A DNA stretch of 64,000 bases, taken from sequence record OQ689734.1; one strand, written 5' to 3'. Positions 19,706 through 30,769 of this stretch are shown piece by piece. Numbering within the stretch: position 1 is the first letter of the stretch; every line of letters starts with the position of its first letter. This DNA is from Escherichia phage 4E8. Made by a program: the position numbers and the translations under genes. Below the pieces are notes generated by a model. It was not told the origin of the DNA. It saw only the letters and a program-made list of their open reading frames with translations, and ran no database searches.

Positions 19706-19719
19706 AATTGGAGGTACTT

Positions 19720-20688
19720 ATGGGTGCTGGAGGTTTTCGAAAGAATACTGGTAGAAACAACACCACACTTCCGTACAATGTTGGTTTTCTAAACAATGTG
19801 CAGGATACAGAAACTTACAACGTTGCTGTCTATGATGAACTACAAAAAGTTAGTACAGCAACCAATCAAATGTTTCAAGCCATTGATGAAATACATGAAG
19901 AAATTGATGTTAGGATTAAAGCTCTTAATGCGATGAATCTTCAATTTGATGAACTTGAAAATAGAATTACTACAGAGATCGAAACAGCTATTGCTGATAT
20001 TCAAACACAGATGGGTAACCTATCCACTGAAGATATTTGGGATAATTCAGTACAACCGCCAGTTAAGCTAGAAAGTTCTATGGCAGGATTTAAGACCTCT
20101 ATAGAAGGTAATGAGGTTAAGATACAATCTGTTGAGGGAATCGTAAACCAGCAGGGAGAGGAAATTGGCTTAGTTCAAACAGAGATCTCTAATATCAACA
20201 GCAGCCTATCTTCTTATATGAAGCTATCTGACTACGAGGCTACGTGGGGGGTTAACTCAAATGTCAACGGTAGGTATGCTGGTGTCAAACTAACTAACAA
20301 TGGCACGAATAGTCAATTCCAAGTAACAGCTAACAAGTTTATTGTCGGTGATGGTAACTCTGGTAACACTCCTTTTGTTTTTGAAGGTGGTAGAGCTAGA
20401 ATGGAATTCGCTGATATCAAGAATGTCAACATTACAACTGCTCAGATTGCTAATGCTCGAATCCAATTTGCTCAGATTGATAACGTGTGGATTCAAGATG
20501 GACAGATTGCTAACCTTACTGCTAACAAGATTACTGCTGGCTCTATGTCCGGTTCTAACTGGAGACTTACAGTAGGTGGAGATTTTGTAATGGGTGGTAC
20601 AGGCGGTTCTCAGTTGTGGATGAACGGTAATAGAATAGATTTTTATGATGGGAGTGGAACTCTTCGCATAAGAATAGGGAGTTGGTAA
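19720..20688 (+). CDS. virion/tail protein; start moved to the ATG at 19720
   Basis: ORF track 19708..20688; ATG at 19720 has a ggagg SD; coiled-coil N-terminus, repeat-like C-terminus (IANARIQFAQIDNVWIQDGQIANLTANKI). Confidence 0.45.
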   Translation: MGAGGFRKNTGRNNTTLPYNVGFLNNVQDTETYNVAVYDELQKVSTATNQMFQAIDEIHEEIDVRIKALNAMNLQFDELENRITTEIETAIADIQTQMGNLSTEDIWDNSVQPPVKLESSMAGFKTSIEGNEVKIQSVEGIVNQQGEEIGLVQTEISNINSSLSSYMKLSDYEATWGVNSNVNGRYAGVKLTNNGTNSQFQVTANKFIVGDGNSGNTPFVFEGGRARMEFADIKNVNITTAQIANARIQFAQIDNVWIQDGQIANLTANKITAGSMSGSNWRLTVGGDFVMGGTGGSQLWMNGNRIDFYDGSGTLRIRIGSW

Positions 20689-20689
20689 T

Positions 20690-21724
20690 ATGGCATATGG
20701 AATATGGACAAGACCTGTTGGTCCGGGTCCGGCGGCACCTGCTGACATTTACATCGATAGTGGTAGCACGTTTCCTCAACTCAAGAATAGAGTTAGCGGT
20801 AACTTTGCATTTAGTGGAAACATTTGTGACCTCCCTATAAACGGGTGGGATGGAAGTGGTCAAATAGTTATTGTCCCAACAGGCTCTGTGGTATGGGAAA
20901 GATATATACCGCCTAATGTGACCTCTGACGTATACTGGATAAATAACATCTCAGTTATTAATAACTCTACTTTTCGAGTTACTATGGATTATAATGTTAA
21001 TGGGTGGATATTTGATATGGCTTTTAATGTGTATCAGATATGGCCTAGAGCTAATAGAAACTACGGAATTACTTTTTCTAACACAGCTGATTACTTCTCT
21101 ATTTCTGACTCTGGTACTGTTGGTCAGTGTATCTGGGCTTGGGAAGGTGACATAAACGGCTCTCTTCAGATACCAGATATTGGAGGTTTTGATATGAGCC
21201 GGGCAACTGTTTATGCAAACTGGAGTCACGGAGGGGCTGGGTTGTTATATAACCCGTCTAACAGGGTTGTTTATGTGTACCAAAACAGGTCTCACGATAA
21301 CAGTAACACAAACCAAACAGGCTATATTGGTGGTGTTAGGATTGCTGTTTTCTGCGATGGTTCTGGGGTACCAACTCACAACGGTGGCCTAAATATCTTT
21401 TCCCCAAATGGGTCTCAGTGCGTATTCTCTACCTACAGAACCCCTTTTAGTGTTGAGGGGTTTATGCCTATGAGTGGAGGTAATACATCTCTGGCCTATC
21501 CAATGATACCACTGTCTTATGGGGCTGGGGCTATACGAGGAAGTGCTAGTGGTTGGTACTTTCAACACACAAGATCTCATATGATGAATGGATCTTCTTT
21601 TGGGACAGGGTATGGAAGAATGATATACTCTTGGTCAAATCGGTATGATCTCGGTGGTGGGGGTGCTCTAGGATTAAGTATTCCGGTATTAGACGCCAAG
21701 AAGATTTTTAGAAGCATACAATAA
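20690..21724 (+). CDS. hypothetical virion protein
   Basis: 344 aa ORF, translationally coupled to the upstream gene. Confidence 0.4.
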   Translation: MAYGIWTRPVGPGPAAPADIYIDSGSTFPQLKNRVSGNFAFSGNICDLPINGWDGSGQIVIVPTGSVVWERYIPPNVTSDVYWINNISVINNSTFRVTMDYNVNGWIFDMAFNVYQIWPRANRNYGITFSNTADYFSISDSGTVGQCIWAWEGDINGSLQIPDIGGFDMSRATVYANWSHGGAGLLYNPSNRVVYVYQNRSHDNSNTNQTGYIGGVRIAVFCDGSGVPTHNGGLNIFSPNGSQCVFSTYRTPFSVEGFMPMSGGNTSLAYPMIPLSYGAGAIRGSASGWYFQHTRSHMMNGSSFGTGYGRMIYSWSNRYDLGGGGALGLSIPVLDAKKIFRSIQ

Positions 21725-21733
21725 GGAGAGGAT

Positions 21734-22531
21734 ATGGATAGGATTTTAGGAGTTTCAGAACTAGACCCACTGGTTCAACAAGCTGCTAAGAAGTATGGTA
21801 TTCCTGCTGCTCTTGTTCATGCGGTGATTCAGAGGGAGTCTAGTGGTAAACCCTCTGCCGCTTCAGGAACAGGGCCAGTAGGATTGATGCAGATTAGTAA
21901 AGGCTTGGCTAAAGATTATGGATATAAACTTGAAGATAGGTTAGACCCTGCAAAGAATATTGACATGGGTGCTAGATATTTAAGAGATAACCTGAAAGCT
22001 TTTGACGGCGATGTGAGGAAGGCTTTGGTGGGGTATTCAGAAGGGACTGGTGGTGCTAAGCAAATGTTTGCTGGTAAGAAAGGGTTTACACCTCAAGCTT
22101 TAGATTCAATGAATAATAAGCTGTTCCTACCATTCTTTGATAAGAATACAGCAGCGGCACAAGTGGCTAATCCTGTAGGTGCTTTGAAAGCAGTACAGCC
22201 TGTGGACCAGTTTGATTCTAATACGCTGACTAGAGAAGGTGCTGCAAACGCTCCTACTCAAGCAGAGATAGCTGCAAGCAAGGCTGGAGCTTTAGGTGGT
22301 CGTCCTGTAGAGTTTTACTCTGATGAACAATCTACTGGGGAAAATCAAAAACCTCAACAGAACTTTGGAAATGCTGTATTGGCAGCTGCTTCTATGCTTG
22401 CAGGAAAACAGCCTAACTCTCAAACCGTACAGAGAGCACATGCCCCTACTCAAGCAGGTTCTCGATACAGTCCACAAACACAAGCCGTGCTGAGACGTTT
22501 GTCTAGCATAGGTACTGATATTTACAGATAA
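21734..22531 (+). CDS. lytic transglycosylase (SLT domain) protein, probably a virion-internal peptidoglycan hydrolase
   Basis: 265 aa; HAVIQRESSGKPSAASGTGPVGLMQI matches the SLT catalytic motif (ES...GxxGLMQ). Confidence 0.7.
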   Translation: MDRILGVSELDPLVQQAAKKYGIPAALVHAVIQRESSGKPSAASGTGPVGLMQISKGLAKDYGYKLEDRLDPAKNIDMGARYLRDNLKAFDGDVRKALVGYSEGTGGAKQMFAGKKGFTPQALDSMNNKLFLPFFDKNTAAAQVANPVGALKAVQPVDQFDSNTLTREGAANAPTQAEIAASKAGALGGRPVEFYSDEQSTGENQKPQQNFGNAVLAAASMLAGKQPNSQTVQRAHAPTQAGSRYSPQTQAVLRRLSSIGTDIYR

Positions 22532-22540
22532 GGAGGACGT

Positions 22541-23593
22541 ATGTCTCTTTTCGGTTCTGCTCCTAAATCTAAGACTACGGTAGCTCCGTCTTCTCAGGTT
22601 GATGCTCTTCTGAAACAGATTGTAGCAAATGCTCAGGCTATGAATCAAAACGATCAAGGTTTTATTGGTCGTAACGTAGCGGGTTTTAATGAAAACCAAA
22701 CAGCAGCTCTTTCTAATTTAGCAAATTCTAACACACTCAACCAACTCAGTCAGATGTACACCCCTAGAACTCAACAAGGGTTGGACCAGATGAATGAGTT
22801 GGCTCAGAAATATCAAAACCTAGTTAATAAAGGTGGTATCACTGCTCAGGATGTTAATAATTTTAGCTCTGGATTGAATAGCTCTGCTTTAGCTAAGTCT
22901 ACAGGTAAAGCTGCTGCTAATGTATCTCTTGGTAATGGTTCTGATTCAGGTTCTCTTAGACGTGCTGCTGCTCAAGGTGCTGCTCTCTCTTCAGCGAATA
23001 CAAACCTTTCTCGTTCTATTCAAGGTAAAAACATGGGTGTTAGCAATCTTATGAATAACAACTCCTATCAGCAAGGTTTGCTCAATGCTCAATCGGGTCT
23101 AGCAAATCAGAATCTGAATCTAGGAGCTGCTGGGGTACAAGCTGGTCAACAGGCAATACAGAATCAGCTCACTGCTGGGAATCTTCAACAACAGCAAGAT
23201 CAACTCCAATCTAACAACAATTGGGAGAATGCTATTGGCAATCAGCAGTATGGTTGGAATCGGCTTAACAACCAGCTTAATGTATTAAACTCAGTAAGCC
23301 CAATGGCTGGGTACACCATTACTAACAAAGGTGCTGCCCCTAATGTTTCACAACAAATCCTTGGTGCTGGGGTTACTGGTCTTGGTATTGCTGGACGTCT
23401 AGGTGCTTTTACCCCTAATCAGCAAACTACTAATGCTTGGAACTCATACAATGCTTCTGGAGGTCAAGCTGGGATGGCTGGTCCTATGATTGGTGGCTCA
23501 AACCTGTCTCAACAGAATGGTCAGAGCAACTGGTTATCTACCGCAGGAAGTAATATCTTAGGTGGTGTTCTAGGAGCCTTTGGAGCAAATTAA
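22541..23593 (+). CDS. Q/N/G-rich internal virion protein (paralog 1)
   Basis: 350 aa low-complexity protein; N-terminus MSLFGSAP..KTT...NQNDQGFIGRNVAGFNENQTAALSNL is similar to the next gene. Confidence 0.4.
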   Translation: MSLFGSAPKSKTTVAPSSQVDALLKQIVANAQAMNQNDQGFIGRNVAGFNENQTAALSNLANSNTLNQLSQMYTPRTQQGLDQMNELAQKYQNLVNKGGITAQDVNNFSSGLNSSALAKSTGKAAANVSLGNGSDSGSLRRAAAQGAALSSANTNLSRSIQGKNMGVSNLMNNNSYQQGLLNAQSGLANQNLNLGAAGVQAGQQAIQNQLTAGNLQQQQDQLQSNNNWENAIGNQQYGWNRLNNQLNVLNSVSPMAGYTITNKGAAPNVSQQILGAGVTGLGIAGRLGAFTPNQQTTNAWNSYNASGGQAGMAGPMIGGSNLSQQNGQSNWLSTAGSNILGGVLGAFGAN

Positions 23594-23602
23594 GGAGGAG
23601 CT

Positions 23603-24571
23603 ATGGCTTTATTCGGTGGTGGGAGTAGCAAGACTACTTCTAAAATGACAAGACCTGACTACATTCAGTCCTATATTGATCAGTTGGTCAATCAGGTTAA
23701 TAACACTAGTTCAGGCGATTATGTGTATCGAGAAAATGTTGGACTTAATCAAAACCAGCAAGAAGCTCTGAACAATCTATCACAATCTGGTGCATTAGGT
23801 GCACTTTCTTCTCAGTATATGGATGCTGCTCAATCTGGCTTAGGTTATCTAGATAACGCATACTCTGGATATAACAACCTATCTAACTCTGGTCAAATCA
23901 CTGGAGAACAGATTGGTGCTCTTGCAGGCCAGCTCTATGACGACGAGGCTGTGCAAGCAGCTATTGCAGCGAATAATGAACAAACCCAACAGAGTTTGGC
24001 TAGGAATGCACTTCCTCAAATCTCTCAGCAGTTTGCTGGTCAGCAAGGTTCTGGTGCACGTATGGCTAAATCTTTTGCTCAGGGTGATGCTCTGAACCAG
24101 ATGCAGAACACAGCAACTAATATTACTAATAGTGCCTATGACTCCGCTCTAACCCAAGCACAGAACATTCTTTCTGGTAATAGACAAACACAAGCATCTG
24201 CTTTAGGTGGTTTATCTAACATTGGCTCCAATCTTGCTAATCTAGGAAACCAAGCTGGTCAGTTATCACAACAGCAAATGATGAATCAGTGGAATGCAGG
24301 ACTGCAACAGCAGCAACAACAGCAATCTGATTTGAACAATGCTTATGAGAATGCTCAGAATGCTGCTAATTGGGGTTGGCAGGATATTAACAATCAACTA
24401 GGTGCTGCCGGGGTTCTTAATGGGGCTTTAGGGACAACCACAACTACTAAAACATCTGGTGGTAGTGGAGGCTTCCTAGGTGGTGCTGCGAGTGGTGCTG
24501 CTGCTGGTTCAGCTTTTGGCCCTTGGGGTGCTTTAGCTGGCGGTGTTATCGGTGGATTAGCTAGCTCTTAA
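23603..24571 (+). CDS. Q/N/G-rich internal virion protein (paralog 2)
   Basis: 322 aa; N-terminus MALFGGGSSKTT...NVGLNQNQQEALNNL parallels the preceding gene. Confidence 0.4.
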   Translation: MALFGGGSSKTTSKMTRPDYIQSYIDQLVNQVNNTSSGDYVYRENVGLNQNQQEALNNLSQSGALGALSSQYMDAAQSGLGYLDNAYSGYNNLSNSGQITGEQIGALAGQLYDDEAVQAAIAANNEQTQQSLARNALPQISQQFAGQQGSGARMAKSFAQGDALNQMQNTATNITNSAYDSALTQAQNILSGNRQTQASALGGLSNIGSNLANLGNQAGQLSQQQMMNQWNAGLQQQQQQQSDLNNAYENAQNAANWGWQDINNQLGAAGVLNGALGTTTTTKTSGGSGGFLGGAASGAAAGSAFGPWGALAGGVIGGLASS

Positions 24572-24585
24572 TTAGGAGAATAATT

Positions 24586-26253
24586 ATGCAACAAACTTCT
24601 TATGCGTATCTTCGCAGTCAAGACCCAAGAAATCAGATTTATGGTGTTAAACAAGGGGCCGCTTCGGCCTCTCCATACATGGCAAGACCTGCTTATCCAG
24701 CTGCTGATGTTTCTATGTATAACCGGAGACCTCCTGCTTCTCCTGTAGGTTTGTCTTCTCTTGTTGCCAATGCTCAAGAAGACCAAGAAGCTATGTTAAA
24801 TCCGGGATTTAGACAGCGCCTTATGGAAGCAGAGAATCAAGGAACTCCTACAAGCCTTCAGGGTATTGATATTGGTGAACCAGCTCCTGCTATGAATAAC
24901 CCAGATCTATCCTCTGATGAGGGTCTACAAGCTGCTGGGTTGATGCCTAGTGACCCACTTCCTGTTACTCCTCCTCGTAAACCTCTGGAAGAAACAGATA
25001 AAGAGTTCTCTCCAGTTCAAGTGGAACAGGCTCAGAATGTTATTAACACTTTAGCTAATAGTAATCCAGCTCCTGAAGGTATGGCTGGTGCAACTCGTGC
25101 TAAAGACCAAGAACGTATTAATAATGATATTATGGAAGTAGCTAAAGCTAAAGACCCAGCACAAGCTTGGAATGAGCTTCAGAAGCAACCGTTCTATCAG
25201 AAGTCTAGTTTCTACACTGGCTTAATGGGTGTTGGTCTTTCTATCATGTCAGGTAAATCCCCTATTGAAGCTTTCCAGATTGGTTCTGGCTTAGCTGCTC
25301 AGGATGAAACTAAACAACAACTAGAAGCCAATCGCGATGCTCTGTTAGAACAAGGCTACTCTCAAGATTCAGTTGCTGCTGCAATTGCTTCGGGAGATCC
25401 TTCTCTTCTCAAGATGCGTCAGATGAGTCCTCAGGAGAAAATGGCTCTTGCTGCTCAGGATGAAGAACGTGCCAATCGTGAGTGGGATAGACGTCAACAG
25501 ATTCAAGAGAATTCGATGCGGGAACGTGCTGCTGAAACTCGTCGTGCTGCTGAAGAACGTGCTAATGCTCAGTTCGAGAAACAGAAAGAACTTATTGGAT
25601 ATCGTGATCAAGTTAAAGCAGAGCGTGCAGAGAAAGCTGCTCAGAGCTTTACTTTCAACCCTAAAGAAGTTCGTCTGGCTCAGAATACAGCAGAAGGTAC
25701 TGTTGCTAAACAGTGGGCAGAAAAAGCAGGTCTGTTTAATCAGTCTCACAAAGACTTGGATTTAGCTGACAAAGCTATTAAAGATAAGGATTATCAAACT
25801 GCTCGTTCTGCTTACATGCAGGCTATCATGAACTCCGCAAGGGCAGAAATTGGTGCTAACCGCTCTCTCCAAGCTGATGACTTGGCTCACTTTGCAGAAG
25901 ACCCGTCAATCTTTGTTAAGGTTGGTAATACTTGGTCCCTTAAAGCAGGTTATCGTCCTTCTGATGCTGCTCTATCATACGCTCGTAAGCAGGCAACTGT
26001 TGGTGCTACTTCCGCTGAGAAAGGTGTGAAGGATGCTAAGAAAGCAACGATCGAAGCGTATATCGGCTCTGGTATGGATAAGAAACGAGCGACAGCTCTT
26101 GTCAACCGTGCTATTCCTTCTGCTGGTTTCTATGACCCATTCGGTACGTTTGAGAGTGAAGCTGAAGCAGCTGTTGGTGGAGATGCTACAAATCCTCGAC
26201 TAACAGGTGCTCTTTCTTCTTCAGCGGCAGATACGAGTTGGATGTTCCAGTAA
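24586..26253 (+). CDS. internal virion protein (hypothetical)
   Basis: 555 aa, coiled-coil/charged central region, in the block between the SLT protein and the giant protein. Confidence 0.4.
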   Translation: MQQTSYAYLRSQDPRNQIYGVKQGAASASPYMARPAYPAADVSMYNRRPPASPVGLSSLVANAQEDQEAMLNPGFRQRLMEAENQGTPTSLQGIDIGEPAPAMNNPDLSSDEGLQAAGLMPSDPLPVTPPRKPLEETDKEFSPVQVEQAQNVINTLANSNPAPEGMAGATRAKDQERINNDIMEVAKAKDPAQAWNELQKQPFYQKSSFYTGLMGVGLSIMSGKSPIEAFQIGSGLAAQDETKQQLEANRDALLEQGYSQDSVAAAIASGDPSLLKMRQMSPQEKMALAAQDEERANREWDRRQQIQENSMRERAAETRRAAEERANAQFEKQKELIGYRDQVKAERAEKAAQSFTFNPKEVRLAQNTAEGTVAKQWAEKAGLFNQSHKDLDLADKAIKDKDYQTARSAYMQAIMNSARAEIGANRSLQADDLAHFAEDPSIFVKVGNTWSLKAGYRPSDAALSYARKQATVGATSAEKGVKDAKKATIEAYIGSGMDKKRATALVNRAIPSAGFYDPFGTFESEAEAAVGGDATNPRLTGALSSSAADTSWMFQ

Positions 26254-26323
26254 TCTAAGACCTAAGTCCTATCTCTTATAATGTATATAGGAGGTAGGAC
26301 ATTTTTATTTATAAGGAGACGTT

Positions 26324-29300
26324 ATGGCTAATTTAAAATCGTGGGAAGAAGCTTCCAAAGCTCCTGCGTATCTGAATGCCTCTCCAGAGCAACAGGCTCA
26401 AATGAGAGAACAATACAAGGCAGCAGGGGGCACTATTCCTGAGACTCAACCACAAGAGCAACCACAACAAGAAGAACGAGGTGTTATTGGGGAGTTTGCT
26501 CAAGGTGTGTCTAACGCTCTTCAATCAGGTGGTGCTAACATTGCAGCTAGTGCTGCTAAAGGTTTAGGTGGGCTGGTAGAGATTGGTGAAAACCTAACTG
26601 GTTCGGAAACAAGCTATGGTAAGCGCATTCAAGAGAACTCTAAGCAATTGCTGGAAGAACGCTTATCCAAGATAGAAGATGGTTTTGGTAAAACAGCTGG
26701 CCAGTATGCTGGTGTTGCTGCTGATATTGGTTTGACAGTTGCAAACCCTGCTGTTGCTGCTGCTGTTATCGCAGCTCGTGAAACAGGTCGTGCTTATGCT
26801 GATCAAACTCCTAAAGAAGATGAAGATAAGTCAATCTTAGATGCTGCTCTTGTTGGTGGTGCTAACTACGCTGCTCAGAAGATACTTCCGGGCATGACTG
26901 GTACAGCTTCTACTACTCTAGGTCGTGTAGGACAAAGCGTAGCCTCTAACGCGGTTGCTGGTGCTAAGGGTGGTGCTATTGTTGGTGCTGCTGAAGCTCA
27001 GAACAAATATGGAGATGATACTACTCTAGCTAATGTCTTGGAAGGGGCTATTGAAGAAGGTGCACTCGGTGCCGCTTATGGTGGGGCGATTGGTGGGGTT
27101 CATGGGTTAATAAGTCGTCCTAGTCCTCAAGTGTTTGATCGTACTCCTGAGCATGTTAAGACTGACATTGCTGCTGAAGATGAGGCTATTCGTAAAGCTG
27201 CTAACGCTGATGAACTTCGTGAAGCCTATGCTAAAGCTGAGAATGCTAATGCTGCCTCTGCTTTAAACCTTCTGGATGAAAATGGTTTCCGAATCACAGA
27301 TGCAGTTGCTATGGACTCTCCTGCTGTTCAGCGTATCTTAAATACAGACCAAAGTCGTGCAGAGAAGGCTGCTACGGTTCAGAAAGATAGCTCTAACGTT
27401 CCCGGTCTTAATCCTTTAGCTTCTCCTAAGAAGACTCAAGGTAAAGCTTTTGCTGACAATGAATACAACCAGAAACAAGCTGTGGCAATGAAAGATGCAA
27501 TGGCTGACTACACTAAAGATAACACCAAAGCCCTTACTGATGTTCTAGACAATCTAGACCGAGAGTTAGTAGCTCTGAGAGCAAGTGGTGATTTTACTGG
27601 TAGTGCTATTGACATTAAAAACCGTACTCAAGCTGATCGTGATTTTATTGATGCTTATAAAACTTTTTACAGTGAAGCTAATCGTTTCAAAGCTCGTGAT
27701 GGTGAAGACCTAAACAACTTCATTGATAAAGCTACTCAGTTGCAGAAGCTCTCTGAAAATGTTTCTCCAGAAATGAAGAAGGCCATTGGTGGATTAAAGA
27801 AACTAAAAGGTATGCCTGAAGGTTTTAACCCTATCCAAGATGCTTTCACTCTGAATAATACAGCTAAGTTCATGAGTAACCAAGACCGTGGTTGGACCTC
27901 TCTGACTGATGACGGTTTTCGTGAAGCTCCGGCTCCTGTGTTAGTTAAGAATCCTCTCGGTGCAGCCAAGTATGTACTTAACCGCTTTACTTCCGATCGT
28001 GCTCGTGCTCAACGTGAGAAGCAACAGTCAGCTAATAGTGAAGCTATCCGCTCTTTGGCTAGGGCTGATTTAGAAGTACAACGAGCTAGGACTCAGGCTG
28101 AAGAAGCAAGAGCAAAAATGGAAGAAGAACCAACCACAGAAGACATCAAATTCCGTACTCAAAATGATGCACCTTCCGAACCGGTTCGTGAGGAGCCTTC
28201 TGCTACTACTGTGACGGAAGAAATTCCTTCCTCTCCAGCTCCAACTGAAACACCTCTTACTGCGAGGGATTTGGTTGCTCAAAGACGTGCTCTCCAACAA
28301 GCAGAGCTTAGACGTCAAGAAGCTGAAGCTGCTCAGGCTCAAGAAAGTGCTACACCAGAACCTGAACCACAGCAAGAAGCTCTTACAGCTAGAGAATTAG
28401 TAGCTCAGCGTAGGGCTGTAGCAGAGGCTAAGAAACGTCAAGAGGCAGAAGAAGCAGAACGTGCTAAAGAAGCTCCTGAGGAAGCCGTAGAAGAGCCTAA
28501 AGAGAAACCTGAGCCATTACCTGCTCGTGCTCCTAAAGCTCCTGAGAAGGCTCCTGAGCCTGTTAAACCGTCACTTGGTGTAGAGCGTCTAGCTTCTATG
28601 TCAACTGCTGCTCGTCAAGCAACGAAAGACCGTGCTGATCGATTTGCTCGTTCTTTGTATTCGGCTGCTGCTAAAGCTAAAGCCACTGCGGAAAACTTCC
28701 TTTCTTACAAAGGAGATCCTAAAGAGCTTATGCGTCGTATCCGTCAGGAAGACCAAGCAAACAACACACAGCGTCATGAAGAGATGGCTAGAAATCAACT
28801 AGCTTCTCAGCAAGGCATTGCTTCTGCTAAATCTCAACATGTTCGTGCTTCTTTTGCTGATTGGGTGAAAGAACGTGGGTTGCCTTCTGATATCGCTACT
28901 AAAGCCTTACGGGCTGAAGAGAAAGGTTTAGGTGGGAACGTCACAAGTCTAGATTCACTGAAGCGAAGAGCTGAGCGTTTATATCAGAAACAAAGAGATG
29001 ATGAGTTTGACCGCCTCTATCGAGAGGCTCTGGAAGAGAATAAAGCTTTTGATAAGAGAGATGCTCCTAAACTGGTAGACCAGAAGAAAGAGCTTCAGGA
29101 TGAAATTGGTGCGTTGCTTGATGCTGAACCGTTACGTCCTGCTCAGAAAGATGCTATGCGTAGGATTATGGAAGACTTCGTGGAGAGTAAGTTTAAATCT
29201 TCAGAGAGAGCTGGAAGGGTTGAGGCTTTGGAAGTTGGTCAGATGAAGGATGTGTGGGATGGGTTTATTAATACCTATAACCGAGAAGTTAACATGTTCA

Positions 29301-30769
29301 ACAAGGCTAACAAGAATTCTCAATACGAAGCAGCAGCTAAACACTTGCAAGCACGTCAAGAACGTCTTGAGACGCTCCGTAACAGAGCTAAAGCTCGCAG
29401 TGATGCTAAGGCAGCCATGGAGGCTGAGAAGCAGTCCTTGGAGGCTATAGCGGCTCAGAAATCAGAGATAGAGAAGATGTTCAAAGAATTGCCTGAAAGT
29501 GTCAGAGAGGCTCAGGAAGGGCGTACTTTGAAACAGCTTGCTGCTCACCATGATAAGAACTCTCCAGTACCACCAGAGCGTTTCCGTAGTATCATTGAAC
29601 GTATTCACAACGCTGAGAGTGATTACCTCGATCGCAAACGTCGTTTGACCGAAGCAGAGGAAGATGCTCGTGAAGCTAAGTGGAATAGGATGTATGAACA
29701 GGCTGAGGAAATGAACCGTAAGTTTGATATCGACTCTAGAGTGAAGAGAGATAAGGCTCTGAAGGAAGCTCAAGAACGAGAGAATGACTTAATGGCAGTT
29801 CAACGTCAGCGTGATGACATTCATAAGCGTTTAGTCAATACTCTGGAAGAGAAGGGAGTTTCTAGGGAAGATGCTGAAGCGTATGCTGGGTCTTACATGG
29901 ATAATCGGTATGCTTTGTTAGAGAAACCAATGACTCCAGTGGAACATCAGAATGCTCGTGCTCGTATTGAATCTGACGTAGAGAAGTTTGTTAAGAAATA
30001 CGAAACAGCTACTCCAATCGAAAGAGAGATTGCTAAAGCAACTGGTGATGCAGATGGAAAACCTTCTGACTTAGATGCAGAAACATTAAAAGCTATTGAA
30101 GATGCTCGTAAAGTTGATTCCGATTTTAAGAAACTCTTAGATGAAGAGAAGGAAATGGAGAAGATTCGTTCAGCTCTACCTGAAGATGAAAGATCTCAGG
30201 CGAACTCTGATATTCTGGAAAGTATTAAGAAACAGGAAGATGATTTTGCTAGCAAAGCAGAGAAAGCTTTTATTGAAGGGAAAGATTTGCAGGAGTTAGC
30301 AAGTGTTGCAGAAGTTCTAGATAGGGTTCATGGTGCAGACAAGGCTGGTAACAACCGTCGATTTGTACGTGCTCTACAGACTGCTGCCGAGAACAAGAAA
30401 CGTTATGGGGATAATCCAGTGGCTTGGTTTAGTGCTGATGATTACTCTGCTATTGCGAAACTTGGTGCTGCTTCGGCAGGTGGTAACAAATCTCGAGCAC
30501 TTGAGAAAATCTTTGGTTCTACAGCAGAACAAGCTAAAGGGAAACTTTTAGGGCGGGATGATGTAGCTAAGATTAGACGTGTGATTGAAGCGAATCCCAA
30601 TGTTAAGATTCCTTCTTACAAGACAACTACTCGACAAGAGTACATGCAGTTCTTGGAGAAGTATAATGACGAGGGAGAGTTGAAAGTCAAACGTGGTTCT
30701 CTGTCTGACAAGTTGGAGAGAGGTAAGCGTCAAGCTAAACTCCGTGTTAGAGTTCGAGCTAAGGAGTAA
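26324..30769 (+). CDS. giant internal virion/ejection protein (tape-measure-like)
   Basis: 1481 aa, largely alpha-helical/coiled-coil, internal near-duplicate segment (LTARDLVAQRRALQQAE / LTARELVAQRRAVAEAK); last gene of the plus-strand block. Confidence 0.5.
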   Translation: MANLKSWEEASKAPAYLNASPEQQAQMREQYKAAGGTIPETQPQEQPQQEERGVIGEFAQGVSNALQSGGANIAASAAKGLGGLVEIGENLTGSETSYGKRIQENSKQLLEERLSKIEDGFGKTAGQYAGVAADIGLTVANPAVAAAVIAARETGRAYADQTPKEDEDKSILDAALVGGANYAAQKILPGMTGTASTTLGRVGQSVASNAVAGAKGGAIVGAAEAQNKYGDDTTLANVLEGAIEEGALGAAYGGAIGGVHGLISRPSPQVFDRTPEHVKTDIAAEDEAIRKAANADELREAYAKAENANAASALNLLDENGFRITDAVAMDSPAVQRILNTDQSRAEKAATVQKDSSNVPGLNPLASPKKTQGKAFADNEYNQKQAVAMKDAMADYTKDNTKALTDVLDNLDRELVALRASGDFTGSAIDIKNRTQADRDFIDAYKTFYSEANRFKARDGEDLNNFIDKATQLQKLSENVSPEMKKAIGGLKKLKGMPEGFNPIQDAFTLNNTAKFMSNQDRGWTSLTDDGFREAPAPVLVKNPLGAAKYVLNRFTSDRARAQREKQQSANSEAIRSLARADLEVQRARTQAEEARAKMEEEPTTEDIKFRTQNDAPSEPVREEPSATTVTEEIPSSPAPTETPLTARDLVAQRRALQQAELRRQEAEAAQAQESATPEPEPQQEALTARELVAQRRAVAEAKKRQEAEEAERAKEAPEEAVEEPKEKPEPLPARAPKAPEKAPEPVKPSLGVERLASMSTAARQATKDRADRFARSLYSAAAKAKATAENFLSYKGDPKELMRRIRQEDQANNTQRHEEMARNQLASQQGIASAKSQHVRASFADWVKERGLPSDIATKALRAEEKGLGGNVTSLDSLKRRAERLYQKQRDDEFDRLYREALEENKAFDKRDAPKLVDQKKELQDEIGALLDAEPLRPAQKDAMRRIMEDFVESKFKSSERAGRVEALEVGQMKDVWDGFINTYNREVNMFNKANKNSQYEAAAKHLQARQERLETLRNRAKARSDAKAAMEAEKQSLEAIAAQKSEIEKMFKELPESVREAQEGRTLKQLAAHHDKNSPVPPERFRSIIERIHNAESDYLDRKRRLTEAEEDAREAKWNRMYEQAEEMNRKFDIDSRVKRDKALKEAQERENDLMAVQRQRDDIHKRLVNTLEEKGVSREDAEAYAGSYMDNRYALLEKPMTPVEHQNARARIESDVEKFVKKYETATPIEREIAKATGDADGKPSDLDAETLKAIEDARKVDSDFKKLLDEEKEMEKIRSALPEDERSQANSDILESIKKQEDDFASKAEKAFIEGKDLQELASVAEVLDRVHGADKAGNNRRFVRALQTAAENKKRYGDNPVAWFSADDYSAIAKLGAASAGGNKSRALEKIFGSTAEQAKGKLLGRDDVAKIRRVIEANPNVKIPSYKTTTRQEYMQFLEKYNDEGELKVKRGSLSDKLERGKRQAKLRVRVRAKE

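Follow-up and report, generated by a model that had tools for sequence, protein, structure and literature searches.

Ancient tandem duplicates of a small ejection protein in Escherichia phage 4E8, an SU10/phiEco32-type podophage

Two consecutive genes of Escherichia phage 4E8 (OQ689734.1), located on the + strand at 22541..23593 and 23603..24571 of the 64,000-nucleotide stretch analysed here (the window), encode proteins of 350 and 322 aa, hereafter A and B, which are ancient duplicates of the small ejection protein (pilot protein) found in podophages of the SU10/phiEco32 type. Both are rich in Q, N, G, A and S, both belong to PHROG 4287, and they are the respective orthologs of SU10 gp21 and of SU10 gp22, a 'DNA injection protein'. 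That they are ejection proteins is essentially known, the genes being already annotated and their orthologs experimentally supported.

To our knowledge, the conduit of short-tailed phages across two membranes is structurally understood only in T7, and partly in P22 and the N4-like phages. Phages of the SU10/phiEco32 group possess five ejection proteins and an unusual nozzle, which is extensible.

Results

The window shares 98.2% identity with Suseptimavirus vB_EcoP-101114UKE3, and the source phage, judged from its sequence, is a Suseptimavirus, i.e., a phiEco32/SU10-like podophage. Its ejection-protein block opens with an SLT lytic transglycosylase of 265 aa (21734..22531, + strand; Pfam PF01464 SLT, E=7.7e-26; PHROG 12507, transglycosylase), the ortholog of SU10 gp20 (81.5% identity), and continues on the same strand with A, B, a medium-sized ejection protein of 555 aa (24586..26253; PHROG 12130; 75.1% identical to SU10 gp23) and a giant ejection protein of 1481 aa (26324..30769; PHROG 14629; 81.3% identical to SU10 gp24), the latter with a hydrophobic window of Kyte-Doolittle value 1.71 at residue 131. 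By position only, the 555-aa protein is a candidate periplasmic-tunnel subunit and the 1481-aa protein a candidate inner-membrane/cytoplasmic subunit. An earlier note on this DNA, made from the sequence alone, had described two consecutive ORFs of 350 and 322 aa, which are present exactly as described, and had placed them between an SLT-domain protein and the giant internal protein; the SLT neighbour is indeed there, but the giant protein is not the adjoining gene, since the 555-aa ORF (24586-26253) intervenes.

A and B each start with an ATG located 5 nt after an AAGGAGG Shine-Dalgarno sequence (TAAGGAGG), which in both cases overlaps the stop codon of the gene before: the junction reads TAAGGAGGACGT then ATG between the SLT gene and A (22529..22540, + strand), and TAAGGAGGAGCT then ATG between A and B (23591..23602, + strand). 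A direct repeat common to the two junctions (D3) was found in a DNA-level repeat search, which gave no sign of a recent duplication of A and B, returning just this common RBS/start region and short GCT-rich matches.

At the protein level, composition-adjusted BLASTP aligns A with B at E=2e-13, with 30% identity across 270 aa, and the Smith-Waterman score is 291, compared with 95.5 +/- 12 when whole sequences are shuffled (z=16) and 117 +/- 15 when 30-residue blocks are (z=11). The BLASTP alignment contains the N-terminal motifs M-S/A-LFG, K-T-T, G-F/L-N-E/Q-NQ and AL-S/N-NL, so that the conserved N-terminus and the paralogy claimed in the earlier note are both borne out; A and B are true paralogs, their likeness exceeding what composition would give. 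Both match the PHROG 4287 'DNA ejection protein' HMM over most or all of their length (A, E=2.3e-104, residues 1-350; B, E=4.3e-99, residues 1-310), and searches of Pfam and NCBIfam returned no family for either. Relative to B, A carries an internal deletion of ~21 residues (alignment columns 132-152), and its C-terminus is different and longer.

The experimental evidence comes from SU10 (Siborova et al. 2022, PMC9509320), a Kuravirus and therefore a member of another genus than the source phage. A is 77.1% identical to SU10 gp21 over 350/350 aa (dN/dS 0.11) and B 82.0% identical to gp22 over 322/322 aa (dN/dS 0.095), the gene order SLT-A-B-medium-giant being identical in the two phages. Supplementary Table 1 of PMC9509320 records SU10 ORF21 (350 aa) and ORF22 (322 aa) as 'in virion: yes' and 'detected by MS: yes', a separate SU10 proteome gives sequence coverages of 53.4% for gp21 and 49.1% for gp22 (PMC4281155), and gp20-24 are missing from genome-release intermediates (PMC9509320). 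Because gp21 and gp22 are found in virions by MS and are lost from these intermediates, they are ejection proteins, and orthology supports the same assignment for A and B. Within the same block, gp20 is an ejected protein that has transglycosylase activity, and gp23 and gp24 are likewise in the virion and lost upon genome release (PMC9509320). The earlier note had interpreted the pair as ejected core or channel components, an interpretation to be given up were the proteins absent from virions; it matches the published experiments on gp21 and gp22 (virion MS, loss on genome release), both of which were found in virions. The SU10 papers assign neither protein a structure, a stoichiometry or an individual role, and do not discuss their paralogy (PMC9509320, PMC4281155).

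The composition of A and B is unusual, as had been noticed earlier: Q+N amounts to 26.9% in A and 24.5% in B, compared with 9.9 +/- 4.2% in the remaining 41 long ORFs of the window, and K+R+D+E to 7.1% and 8.1%, compared with 23.9 +/- 6.1%. The accompanying description as low-complexity proteins has to be toned down, as a sequence entropy of 3.66-3.67 bits makes their low complexity merely moderate. AlphaFold2 monomers (mean pLDDT 53) predict helix across about 75-80% of each protein. In A the predicted alpha-helical body comprises residues 18-252 (22592..23296, + strand), with DSSP helices at residues 18-36, 51-61, 64-96, 102-123, 137-166 and 175-252; this model was used for secondary structure only, because its mean pLDDT is 53.5. 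In B the predicted body comprises residues 19-274 (23657..24424, + strand; DSSP and per-block pLDDT), pLDDT reaches 72-85 at residues ~100-190, and the 100-degree hydrophobic moment exceeds that of shuffles (z=3.7), indicating amphipathic periodicity. Foldseek searches with the A and B models found nothing in the PDB at E<=0.001, the top match (E=0.23) being the coiled coil of a colicin, and only uncharacterised phage homologs in BFVD (TM-scores 0.2-0.3); owing to this low confidence and lack of structural neighbours the folds were set aside for inference. Sequence searches of the PDB with single A or B sequences gave nothing, or E=0.89. The family profile retrieved only coronavirus HR1 coiled coils from the PDB (E ~0.04-0.13), which were rejected as compositional or coiled-coil noise.

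The earlier note had also suggested that such bodies may be flexible or phase-separating. As regards flexibility, AlphaFold2 gives helices and not disorder over the first ~250-275 residues, at low confidence. Disordered, prion-like Q/N-rich proteins forming a condensate would fit a Q+N content of 25-27%, the very few charged residues and the low AlphaFold2 confidence of most residues in both proteins, but the extent of predicted helix, the amphipathic periodicity of B and a full-length, position-specific conservation in thousands of relatives with dN/dS ~0.1, as usually seen in proteins that fold or oligomerise, make this extremely improbable; phase separation thus finds no support, and the best-conserved element is instead a membrane-type glycine-zipper tail.

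In A this tail consists of two glycine-rich hydrophobic segments joined by an N/Q/S/G linker. The first, residues 272-291 (QILGAGVTGLGIAGRLGAFT; 23354..23413, + strand), is the top 19-residue Kyte-Doolittle window of A (1.29), carries small-xxx-small repeats and is among the two best-conserved blocks of the A clade; the second, residues 331-350 (WLSTAGSNILGGVLGAFGAN; 23531..23590, + strand), reaches 1.03 and contains GxxxG and small-xxx-small motifs. In B there is a single C-terminal glycine zipper, residues 285-322 (SGGSGGFLGGAASGAAAGSAFGPWGALAGGVIGGLASS; 24455..24568, + strand), with nine overlapping GxxxG motifs, which is the most conserved stretch of the B clade (0.72-0.79 identity versus 0.44-0.67 elsewhere) and is kept in distant single-copy relatives. 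Relatives also give Pfam glycine-zipper matches that are sub-threshold. The top 19-residue windows (A 1.29, B 1.07) are close to those of P22 gp7 (1.31) and LUZ24 gp53 (1.29), and the hydrophobic segments of A and B fall under the usual Kyte-Doolittle threshold of ~1.6 for a transmembrane helix. A literature search for phage ejection proteins with a glycine zipper found no paper.

The family itself is very large. At E<=1e-3 a profile search retrieved 7380 cluster representatives, of which the majority are 270-430 aa in length and match from end to end; members occur in phages whose capsid, portal or adaptor genes are of the SU10 type, and their genes immediately precede a medium-sized and a large ORF. 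In a Poisson-distance tree with 200 bootstraps the A clade and the B clade separate with 200/200 support each, the A branch being longer. Relatives such as 7-11 and LUZ24 have a single copy, both paralogs are kept in every duplication-bearing lineage examined, and a new point is that one duplication took place, basal to the Gordonclarkvirinae-like lineage.

These data bear on whether A and B act together. They might instead act at different places or times and form no single mixed ring; B, with the ancestral zipper, could for example be the membrane pore, and A an adaptor, a plug or an inner-membrane element. In line with such a division of labour are the separation of the two clades and the longer A branch, the retrieval of distant single-copy relatives with B but not with A, the internal deletion, different C-terminus and linker-separated segments of A, the fact that each clade has best-conserved blocks of its own, and the retention of both copies wherever the duplication occurs. 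However, A and B are alike in length, composition and predicted helical layout, a likeness that suits a hetero-oligomer equally well; we consider separate roles conceivable, if rather unlikely.

A further new point is that in many single-copy relatives a Peptidase_S74 domain follows right after the zipper. It scores above the Pfam cut-off in P0211 (37 bits), P0228 (39.7), P0239 (37.9), P0122 (26.2) and P0126 (24.8), and reaches 20.5 bits in 7-11 gp20, slightly under the 22-bit cut-off; a Pfam search found no PF13884 (Peptidase_S74) in A or B. In single-copy relatives such as 7-11 gp20, a self-cleavage site, F|SD, is predicted ahead of this domain. The domain is an intramolecular chaperone which in known cases helps trimeric fibres to fold and is then released by self-cleavage, and its presence in relatives is a hint about oligomeric state. 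Taken together with the long predicted helices of the A and B bodies, it would suit a trimeric alpha-helical coiled-coil fibre or needle that extends or replaces the tail needle and encloses no hollow channel. We hold this to be quite unlikely: A and B have no S74 domain, SU10 has a separate trimeric needle, gp18, and gp21 and gp22 are unseen in its tail density (PMC9509320), the domain may be a mere self-cleaving linker in fusion proteins, and trimers could also build 6-, 9- or 12-mers.

In some relatives the module is fused to a cell-wall hydrolase, by which a role in envelope penetration is indicated. This fusion, together with the strongly conserved glycine-zipper tail and the conserved place at the head of the ejection block, speaks against A and B being capsid-internal accessories that organise or lubricate DNA, stabilise the portal barrel or plug the channel, and are expelled passively with no role in the envelope. 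Such an accessory would agree with the density of gp21 and gp22, which is unresolved in SU10 virions (PMC9509320), and with P22, where the ejection proteins are thought to be loosely bound to the portal barrel and to take up room which DNA can otherwise fill (bioRxiv 10.1101/2025.06.11.659172; PMC8402733); the near absence of charge in A and B would limit DNA binding. A purely capsid-internal function is, on balance, very unlikely.

Discussion

A and B probably oligomerise and send their zipper tails into a membrane, so that the DNA conduit would begin with an outer segment made of these proteins. All five proteins of the block (SLT, A, B, 555-aa and 1481-aa) would be packed in the capsid and leave upon genome release, as shown for the SU10 orthologs. 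With the tail needle gone, A and B would pass through the portal-nozzle channel as extended, poorly charged and largely helix-forming chains, after which their long Q/N-rich helices would oligomerise, possibly into a mixed A/B ring, and the glycine-zipper C-termini would enter one of the host membranes, most likely the outer one. The first trans-envelope segment built in this way would prolong the SU10-type nozzle and provide a docking site for the downstream 555-aa and 1481-aa proteins.

A more elaborate version, in which two diverged paralogs form a hetero-oligomeric pore, their single-copy ancestor was matured by S74 self-cleavage, and the duplication replaced the S74 chaperone by a partner subunit, is speculative and in our opinion doubtful. 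If the ancestor was indeed matured by S74, assembly of the first ejected component would follow a trimer-based logic taken over from tail fibres. Among the leads offered by these results are the glycine zipper as a target and the duplicated versus single-copy lineages as a natural experiment.

Comparison with known ejection proteins

We infer that the role of A and B would correspond to that assigned to T7 gp14, P22 gp7, DEV gp73 and Pa223 gp56. T7 gp14, which is the outer-membrane pore of the T7 ejectosome, and N4 gp52/DEV gp73 occupy the same slot as A and B, being small, first-ejected, membrane-inserting products of a small-medium-large operon (PMC8954989), but they are about half the size, and the hydrophobic segment of T7 gp14 is N-terminal whereas the glycine-rich segments of A and B are C-terminal. 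No similarity of the family to T7 gp14 or N4 gp52 was found with hhalign (probability 0.1-0.2%; 0.1% for T7 gp14), and PHROG 805 was not matched by A or B.

P22 gp7 (PHROG 598), listed as a gp14-like (outer membrane) small ejection protein (PMC8954989), is like A and B encoded by the first and smallest gene of its ejection block and has a similar composition (Q+N 18%, G+A+S 40%, charged residues 10.5%); it differs in its length of 229 aa and in having a cleaved 20-residue N-terminal leader. A new point is that the C-terminal motif GGxASGAxAG...PWGAxxGGxIGxLxS is common to P22 gp7 and the A/B family. The B-type zipper aligns with the P22 gp7 C-terminus in hhalign at 77.6% probability (E=1.9e-5, 26 columns; reversed controls 0.5-0.8%), or at 47% (E=2e-4) in a single-sequence test; the PWGA-type tail is clear in B, and A has glycine zippers without PWG. 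Beyond these last ~26-38 glycine-rich columns hhalign found no similarity between A/B and P22 gp7, neither A nor B matched Pfam PF25688 (P22_gp7) even at E<=10, P22 gp7 itself scoring 428 bits, and the hhalign comparison of the family with P22 gp20 was negative.

Gp20 of Salmonella phage 7-11 resembles A and B in its PHROG 4287 match (E=2.3e-136), N-terminus, helical body and glycine zipper. Unlike the A/B pair, this protein and its relatives in Grimontviridae and in Cronobacter, Aeromonas and Proteus phages ('DNA ejection proteins') are present in a single copy, which in 7-11-like phages lies upstream of the SLT gene, whereas A and B lie downstream of it. Proteins of the 7-11 gp20 type also carry a C-terminal extension of ~80-100 residues resembling Peptidase_S74, unlike A and B.

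The remaining comparison, with LUZ24 and Pa223, is also new: profile comparison indicates remote homology of A and B to the Bruynoghevirus protein LUZ24 gp53/Pa223 gp56 (PHROG 7477), a proposed outer-membrane channel protein. LUZ24 gp53 (313 aa) matches PHROG 4287 at E=2e-10 and the A/B family profile with an hhalign probability of 93.3% (E=2.6e-7, 147 columns), and since A and B themselves do not match PHROG 7477 at E<0.01, we regard them as remote relatives rather than as members. With A and B gp53 shares a similar size, an N-terminal G/S/K/T stretch, a 'W..YEN' region, a glycine-rich hydrophobic tail and the unusual composition, and the central hhalign-aligned region sets 'GSSRAGVAEG' of gp53 against 'GSGARMAKS' of B; it differs in being a single copy. 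It was taken as the presumed counterpart of Pa223 gp56 by matching size and gene order. Pa223 gp56 occurs in the virion; it has been proposed as a gp14-like outer-membrane channel and modelled as a nonameric channel with AlphaFold3, its channel role being a prediction from AlphaFold3 and transmembrane prediction (bioRxiv 10.1101/2025.06.11.659172).

The order A, B, 555 aa, 1481 aa is paralleled in LUZ24 by gp53, gp52, gp51 (505 aa) and gp50 (1055 aa), so that gp53, like A and B, precedes a medium-sized and a large ejection protein. BLASTP and thin profiles (six and five orthologs) found no similarity between the 555-aa protein and gp51, or between the 1481-aa protein and gp50. As no homology was detected to these LUZ24 candidates for the tunnel and the inner-membrane part, the mapping of small, medium and large proteins is one of size and order only. 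The comparison nevertheless ties gp21 and gp22 to a very large family that includes the proposed outer-membrane channel of the therapeutic Pseudomonas phages LUZ24 and Pa223, and that shares a membrane-type tail with P22 gp7.

Probable ejected virion proteins with characterised orthologs

The two tandem genes, A (22541-23593, 350 aa) and B (23603-24571, 322 aa), lie in a region that matches Escherichia phage vB_EcoP-101114UKE3 (genus Suseptimavirus, within Gordonclarkvirinae) at 98.2% identity, and SU7, Bas86, Bas87 and others at 94-98%. The Bas86 and Bas87 records already label each of the two genes 'DNA ejection protein'. In the Kuravirus SU10 the gene order is the same, A being 77.1% identical to ORF21 (350 aa) and B 82.0% identical to ORF22 (322 aa), with dN/dS of about 0.1. 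The SU10 proteins were detected in virions by mass spectrometry, in a 2014 proteome with coverage of 53.4% for gp21 and 49.1% for gp22 (PMC4281155), and again as virion proteins in the 2022 cryo-EM study (PMC9509320, Supplementary Table 1), in which they were shown experimentally to be packaged and ejected and in which none of the resolved density was assignable to gp21 or gp22 (PMC9509320).

The earlier note had proposed A and B as ejected internal virion proteins and had given their absence from virions as what would refute this; that check has in effect been run on the close SU10 orthologs, both of which are present. The note's interpretation is borne out, and A and B are very probably ejected virion proteins. 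As a DNA ejection protein pair they are already annotated and the ejection of their orthologs already shown. What is added here is modest, namely the history of the duplication, a remote homology to the candidate channel protein of Bruynoghevirus, the zipper in common with P22 gp7 and the S74-bearing relatives, which sharpen a testable model and leave the category unchanged.

Gene layout and neighbouring genes

All genes of the block are on the plus strand. A and B start with ATG, each preceded at 5 nt by an AAGGAGG Shine-Dalgarno. In both cases this motif shares bases with the stop codon of the upstream gene (TAAGGAGG), so that the genes form a single compact operon. The SLT transglycosylase gene (21734-22531) lies directly upstream of A and the 555-aa ORF (24586-26253) directly downstream of B, followed by the giant 1481-aa ORF (26324-30769); the placement of the pair between the SLT and giant proteins, as first described, therefore holds on the SLT side, while the giant is not an immediate neighbour.

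Junction motifs of the block are found at 21725-21733, 22529-22540, 23591-23602 and 26306-26323. At the three junctions into SLT, A and B the stop codon is fused with the next Shine-Dalgarno (TAAGGAG); the fourth, which precedes the 1481-aa gene, is found some 50 nt past the previous stop and is not a fused stop. This layout suggests that translation is coupled and that expression ratios are fixed.

Upstream of the SLT gene, and flanked on the other side by the tail needle, the structural operon includes a gene for a DUF6453 protein (20690-21724, 344 aa; PHROG 1265 'membrane protein', moron category). Among the genes of the block it has diverged most from SU10 (62.6% identity, dS saturated), and its ortholog, SU10 ORF19, was not detected in virions. 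The tail needle was called mechanically from TTG 19708 (19708-20688, 326 aa), but the true start is probably the later one at 19720, since related records annotate 322 aa and the 322-aa reading aligns with SU10 gp18 at 91.6% identity. Around residue 131 the 1481-aa protein shows a hydrophobic window (KD 1.71). At residues ~640-760 one of its segments is nearly repeated (LTARDLVAQRRALQQAE... and LTARELVAQRRAVAEAK...), and a P/E/K/A-rich stretch comes next; the label 'Nuclear Pore Complex' carried by its ortholog in the SU10 table is probably a spurious low-complexity annotation.

Paralogy, composition and duplication history

A and B share 30% identity over 270 residues (BLASTP with composition adjustment, E=2e-13), the alignment displaying the common N-terminal motifs from which tandem paralogy was originally proposed, and both match PHROG 4287 ('DNA ejection protein') essentially over their full length. 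Their composition is extreme for this genome, as had been noticed: Q+N amounts to 26.9% in A and 24.5% in B against 9.9 +/- 4.2% in the other 41 long ORFs of the window, and charged residues to 7.1% and 8.1% against 23.9 +/- 6.1%. The similarity is nevertheless not a by-product of this common composition, since the Smith-Waterman score of 291 exceeds the scores of whole-sequence shuffles by 16 SD and those of 30-residue block shuffles by 11 SD. The further suggestion that such proteins could phase-separate found no support.

At the DNA level, likeness between the genes is left only in the RBS/start region, so the duplication is old. In a distance tree the A and B clades were each recovered in 200/200 bootstraps and as sisters in 137/200, with the single-copy proteins of 7-11-like and more distant phages outside; single-copy lineages include Salmonella phage 7-11 (Grimontviridae), a metagenomic relative (L006), LUZ24 and small podophages with SU10-type capsids. 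Both copies are likewise present in elements of Enterobacter and E. coli that are more distant, in the order SLT-333/334-322-490/498-1108/1113. B has kept the ancestral tail and retrieves distant relatives; the branch of A is longer, and A is missing about 21 alignment columns and ends in a tail of another kind, which contains two glycine-rich segments. The simplest reading is that the gene was duplicated once, long ago, and that the copies then diverged and were both retained.

Wider family and genomic contexts

In word-indexed searches, orthologs of both the A and the B type were recovered with identities as low as about 40%, and the two types repeatedly shared a contig. A profile built from both clades and searched against 1.84 billion cluster representatives matched 7380 proteins at E<=1e-3, of which 2063 reached E<=1e-10; the majority are 270-430 aa long and match the whole profile. 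Judging by genomic context, the family belongs to podophages whose major capsid, portal or adaptor genes are of the SU10 type; its gene comes late in the tail-gene block, ahead of one medium-sized and one large ORF. The recurrent architecture consists of an MG-(G/S)n-T/S-rich-P N-terminus, a helical Q/N-rich body and a tail of the form ...TTT..SGG..LGGAxSGAAAGSAFGPWGALAGGVIGG.

A phage element with SU10-type capsid and portal genes and the same block, SLT-334-322-498-1113 (loci L005 and L015, the latter E. coli GCA_023211535.1, contig DAHCAP010000002.1, 204317-225285), lies mid-way in a 389-kb E. coli contig. The SU10-type group is usually regarded as strictly lytic; this position suggests that temperate (prophage) relatives exist, or may instead reflect misassembly of the contig.

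In many single-copy relatives a Peptidase_S74 intramolecular-chaperone domain, in several cases above the Pfam cut-off, directly follows the glycine zipper: 7-11 gp20 (locus L008, 9001-10239; 20.5 bits, just under the cut-off), P0097 (L006, 10001-11272), P0098, P0119, P0122, P0126, P0211 and the metagenomic P0228 and P0239, in which S74 is followed by a Hydrolase_2 cell-wall hydrolase. The domain is absent from A and B themselves and is unexpected on an ejection protein. In known proteins S74 aids trimer folding and then cleaves itself off, which by analogy hints at a trimer-based assembly step or trimer-assisted folding, or else at a self-cleaving polyprotein; after cleavage, these relatives would have a mature C-terminus similar to the one with which A and B naturally end.

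Predicted structure and proposed mechanism

AlphaFold2 monomers of A and B are of low confidence (mean pLDDT 53, reaching 72-85 at residues ~100-190 of B), and no structural neighbours of the models were found in the PDB. The models are consistently helical to residue ~252 in A and ~274 in B, followed by a coil-like glycine-rich tail. The tail of B, which is the most conserved part of that protein, has nine overlapping GxxxG motifs, and relatives give sub-threshold matches to Pfam glycine-zipper families. Kyte-Doolittle values of the A and B tails (1.07-1.29) are below those of a classical transmembrane helix and on a par with P22 gp7 and LUZ24 gp53.

A and B would pass out of the nozzle extended. 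Their helices would oligomerise, possibly into a ring containing both proteins, and the glycine-zipper tails would enter a membrane, most probably the outer membrane. This would give the first segment of a conduit, to be completed by the SLT enzyme together with the 555-aa and 1481-aa proteins. We lean slightly towards a membrane-inserting channel component; its location in the outer membrane specifically is a tentative assignment.

Comparison with characterised ejection proteins

LUZ24 gp53 (313 aa), the putative counterpart of gp56 of the fellow Bruynoghevirus Pa223 by matching size and gene order, hits PHROG 4287 (E=2e-10) and aligns with the A/B profile over 147 columns (hhalign probability 93.3%, E=2.6e-7). 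The virion protein Pa223 gp56, noted to be twice the usual size, has been proposed as a gp14-like outer-membrane channel and modelled by AlphaFold3 as a nonameric channel (bioRxiv 10.1101/2025.06.11.659172). A and B are thus remote relatives of the Bruynoghevirus candidate channel protein; no similarity was detectable between the 555-aa and 1481-aa proteins and LUZ24 gp51 and gp50.

P22 gp7, a small ejection protein classed as gp14-like in review (PMC8954989), shares with A and B an unusual composition and a C-terminal glycine zipper (hhalign 77.6%, E=1.9e-5; reversed controls <1%), which marks a common module; outside the zipper nothing aligns. Neither A nor B matches Pfam PF25688 (P22_gp7), and the family shows no detectable similarity to T7 gp14 or N4 gp52. 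By sequence, then, A and B stand outside the gp14 and PF25688 families, although they would fill the functional slot of T7 gp14.
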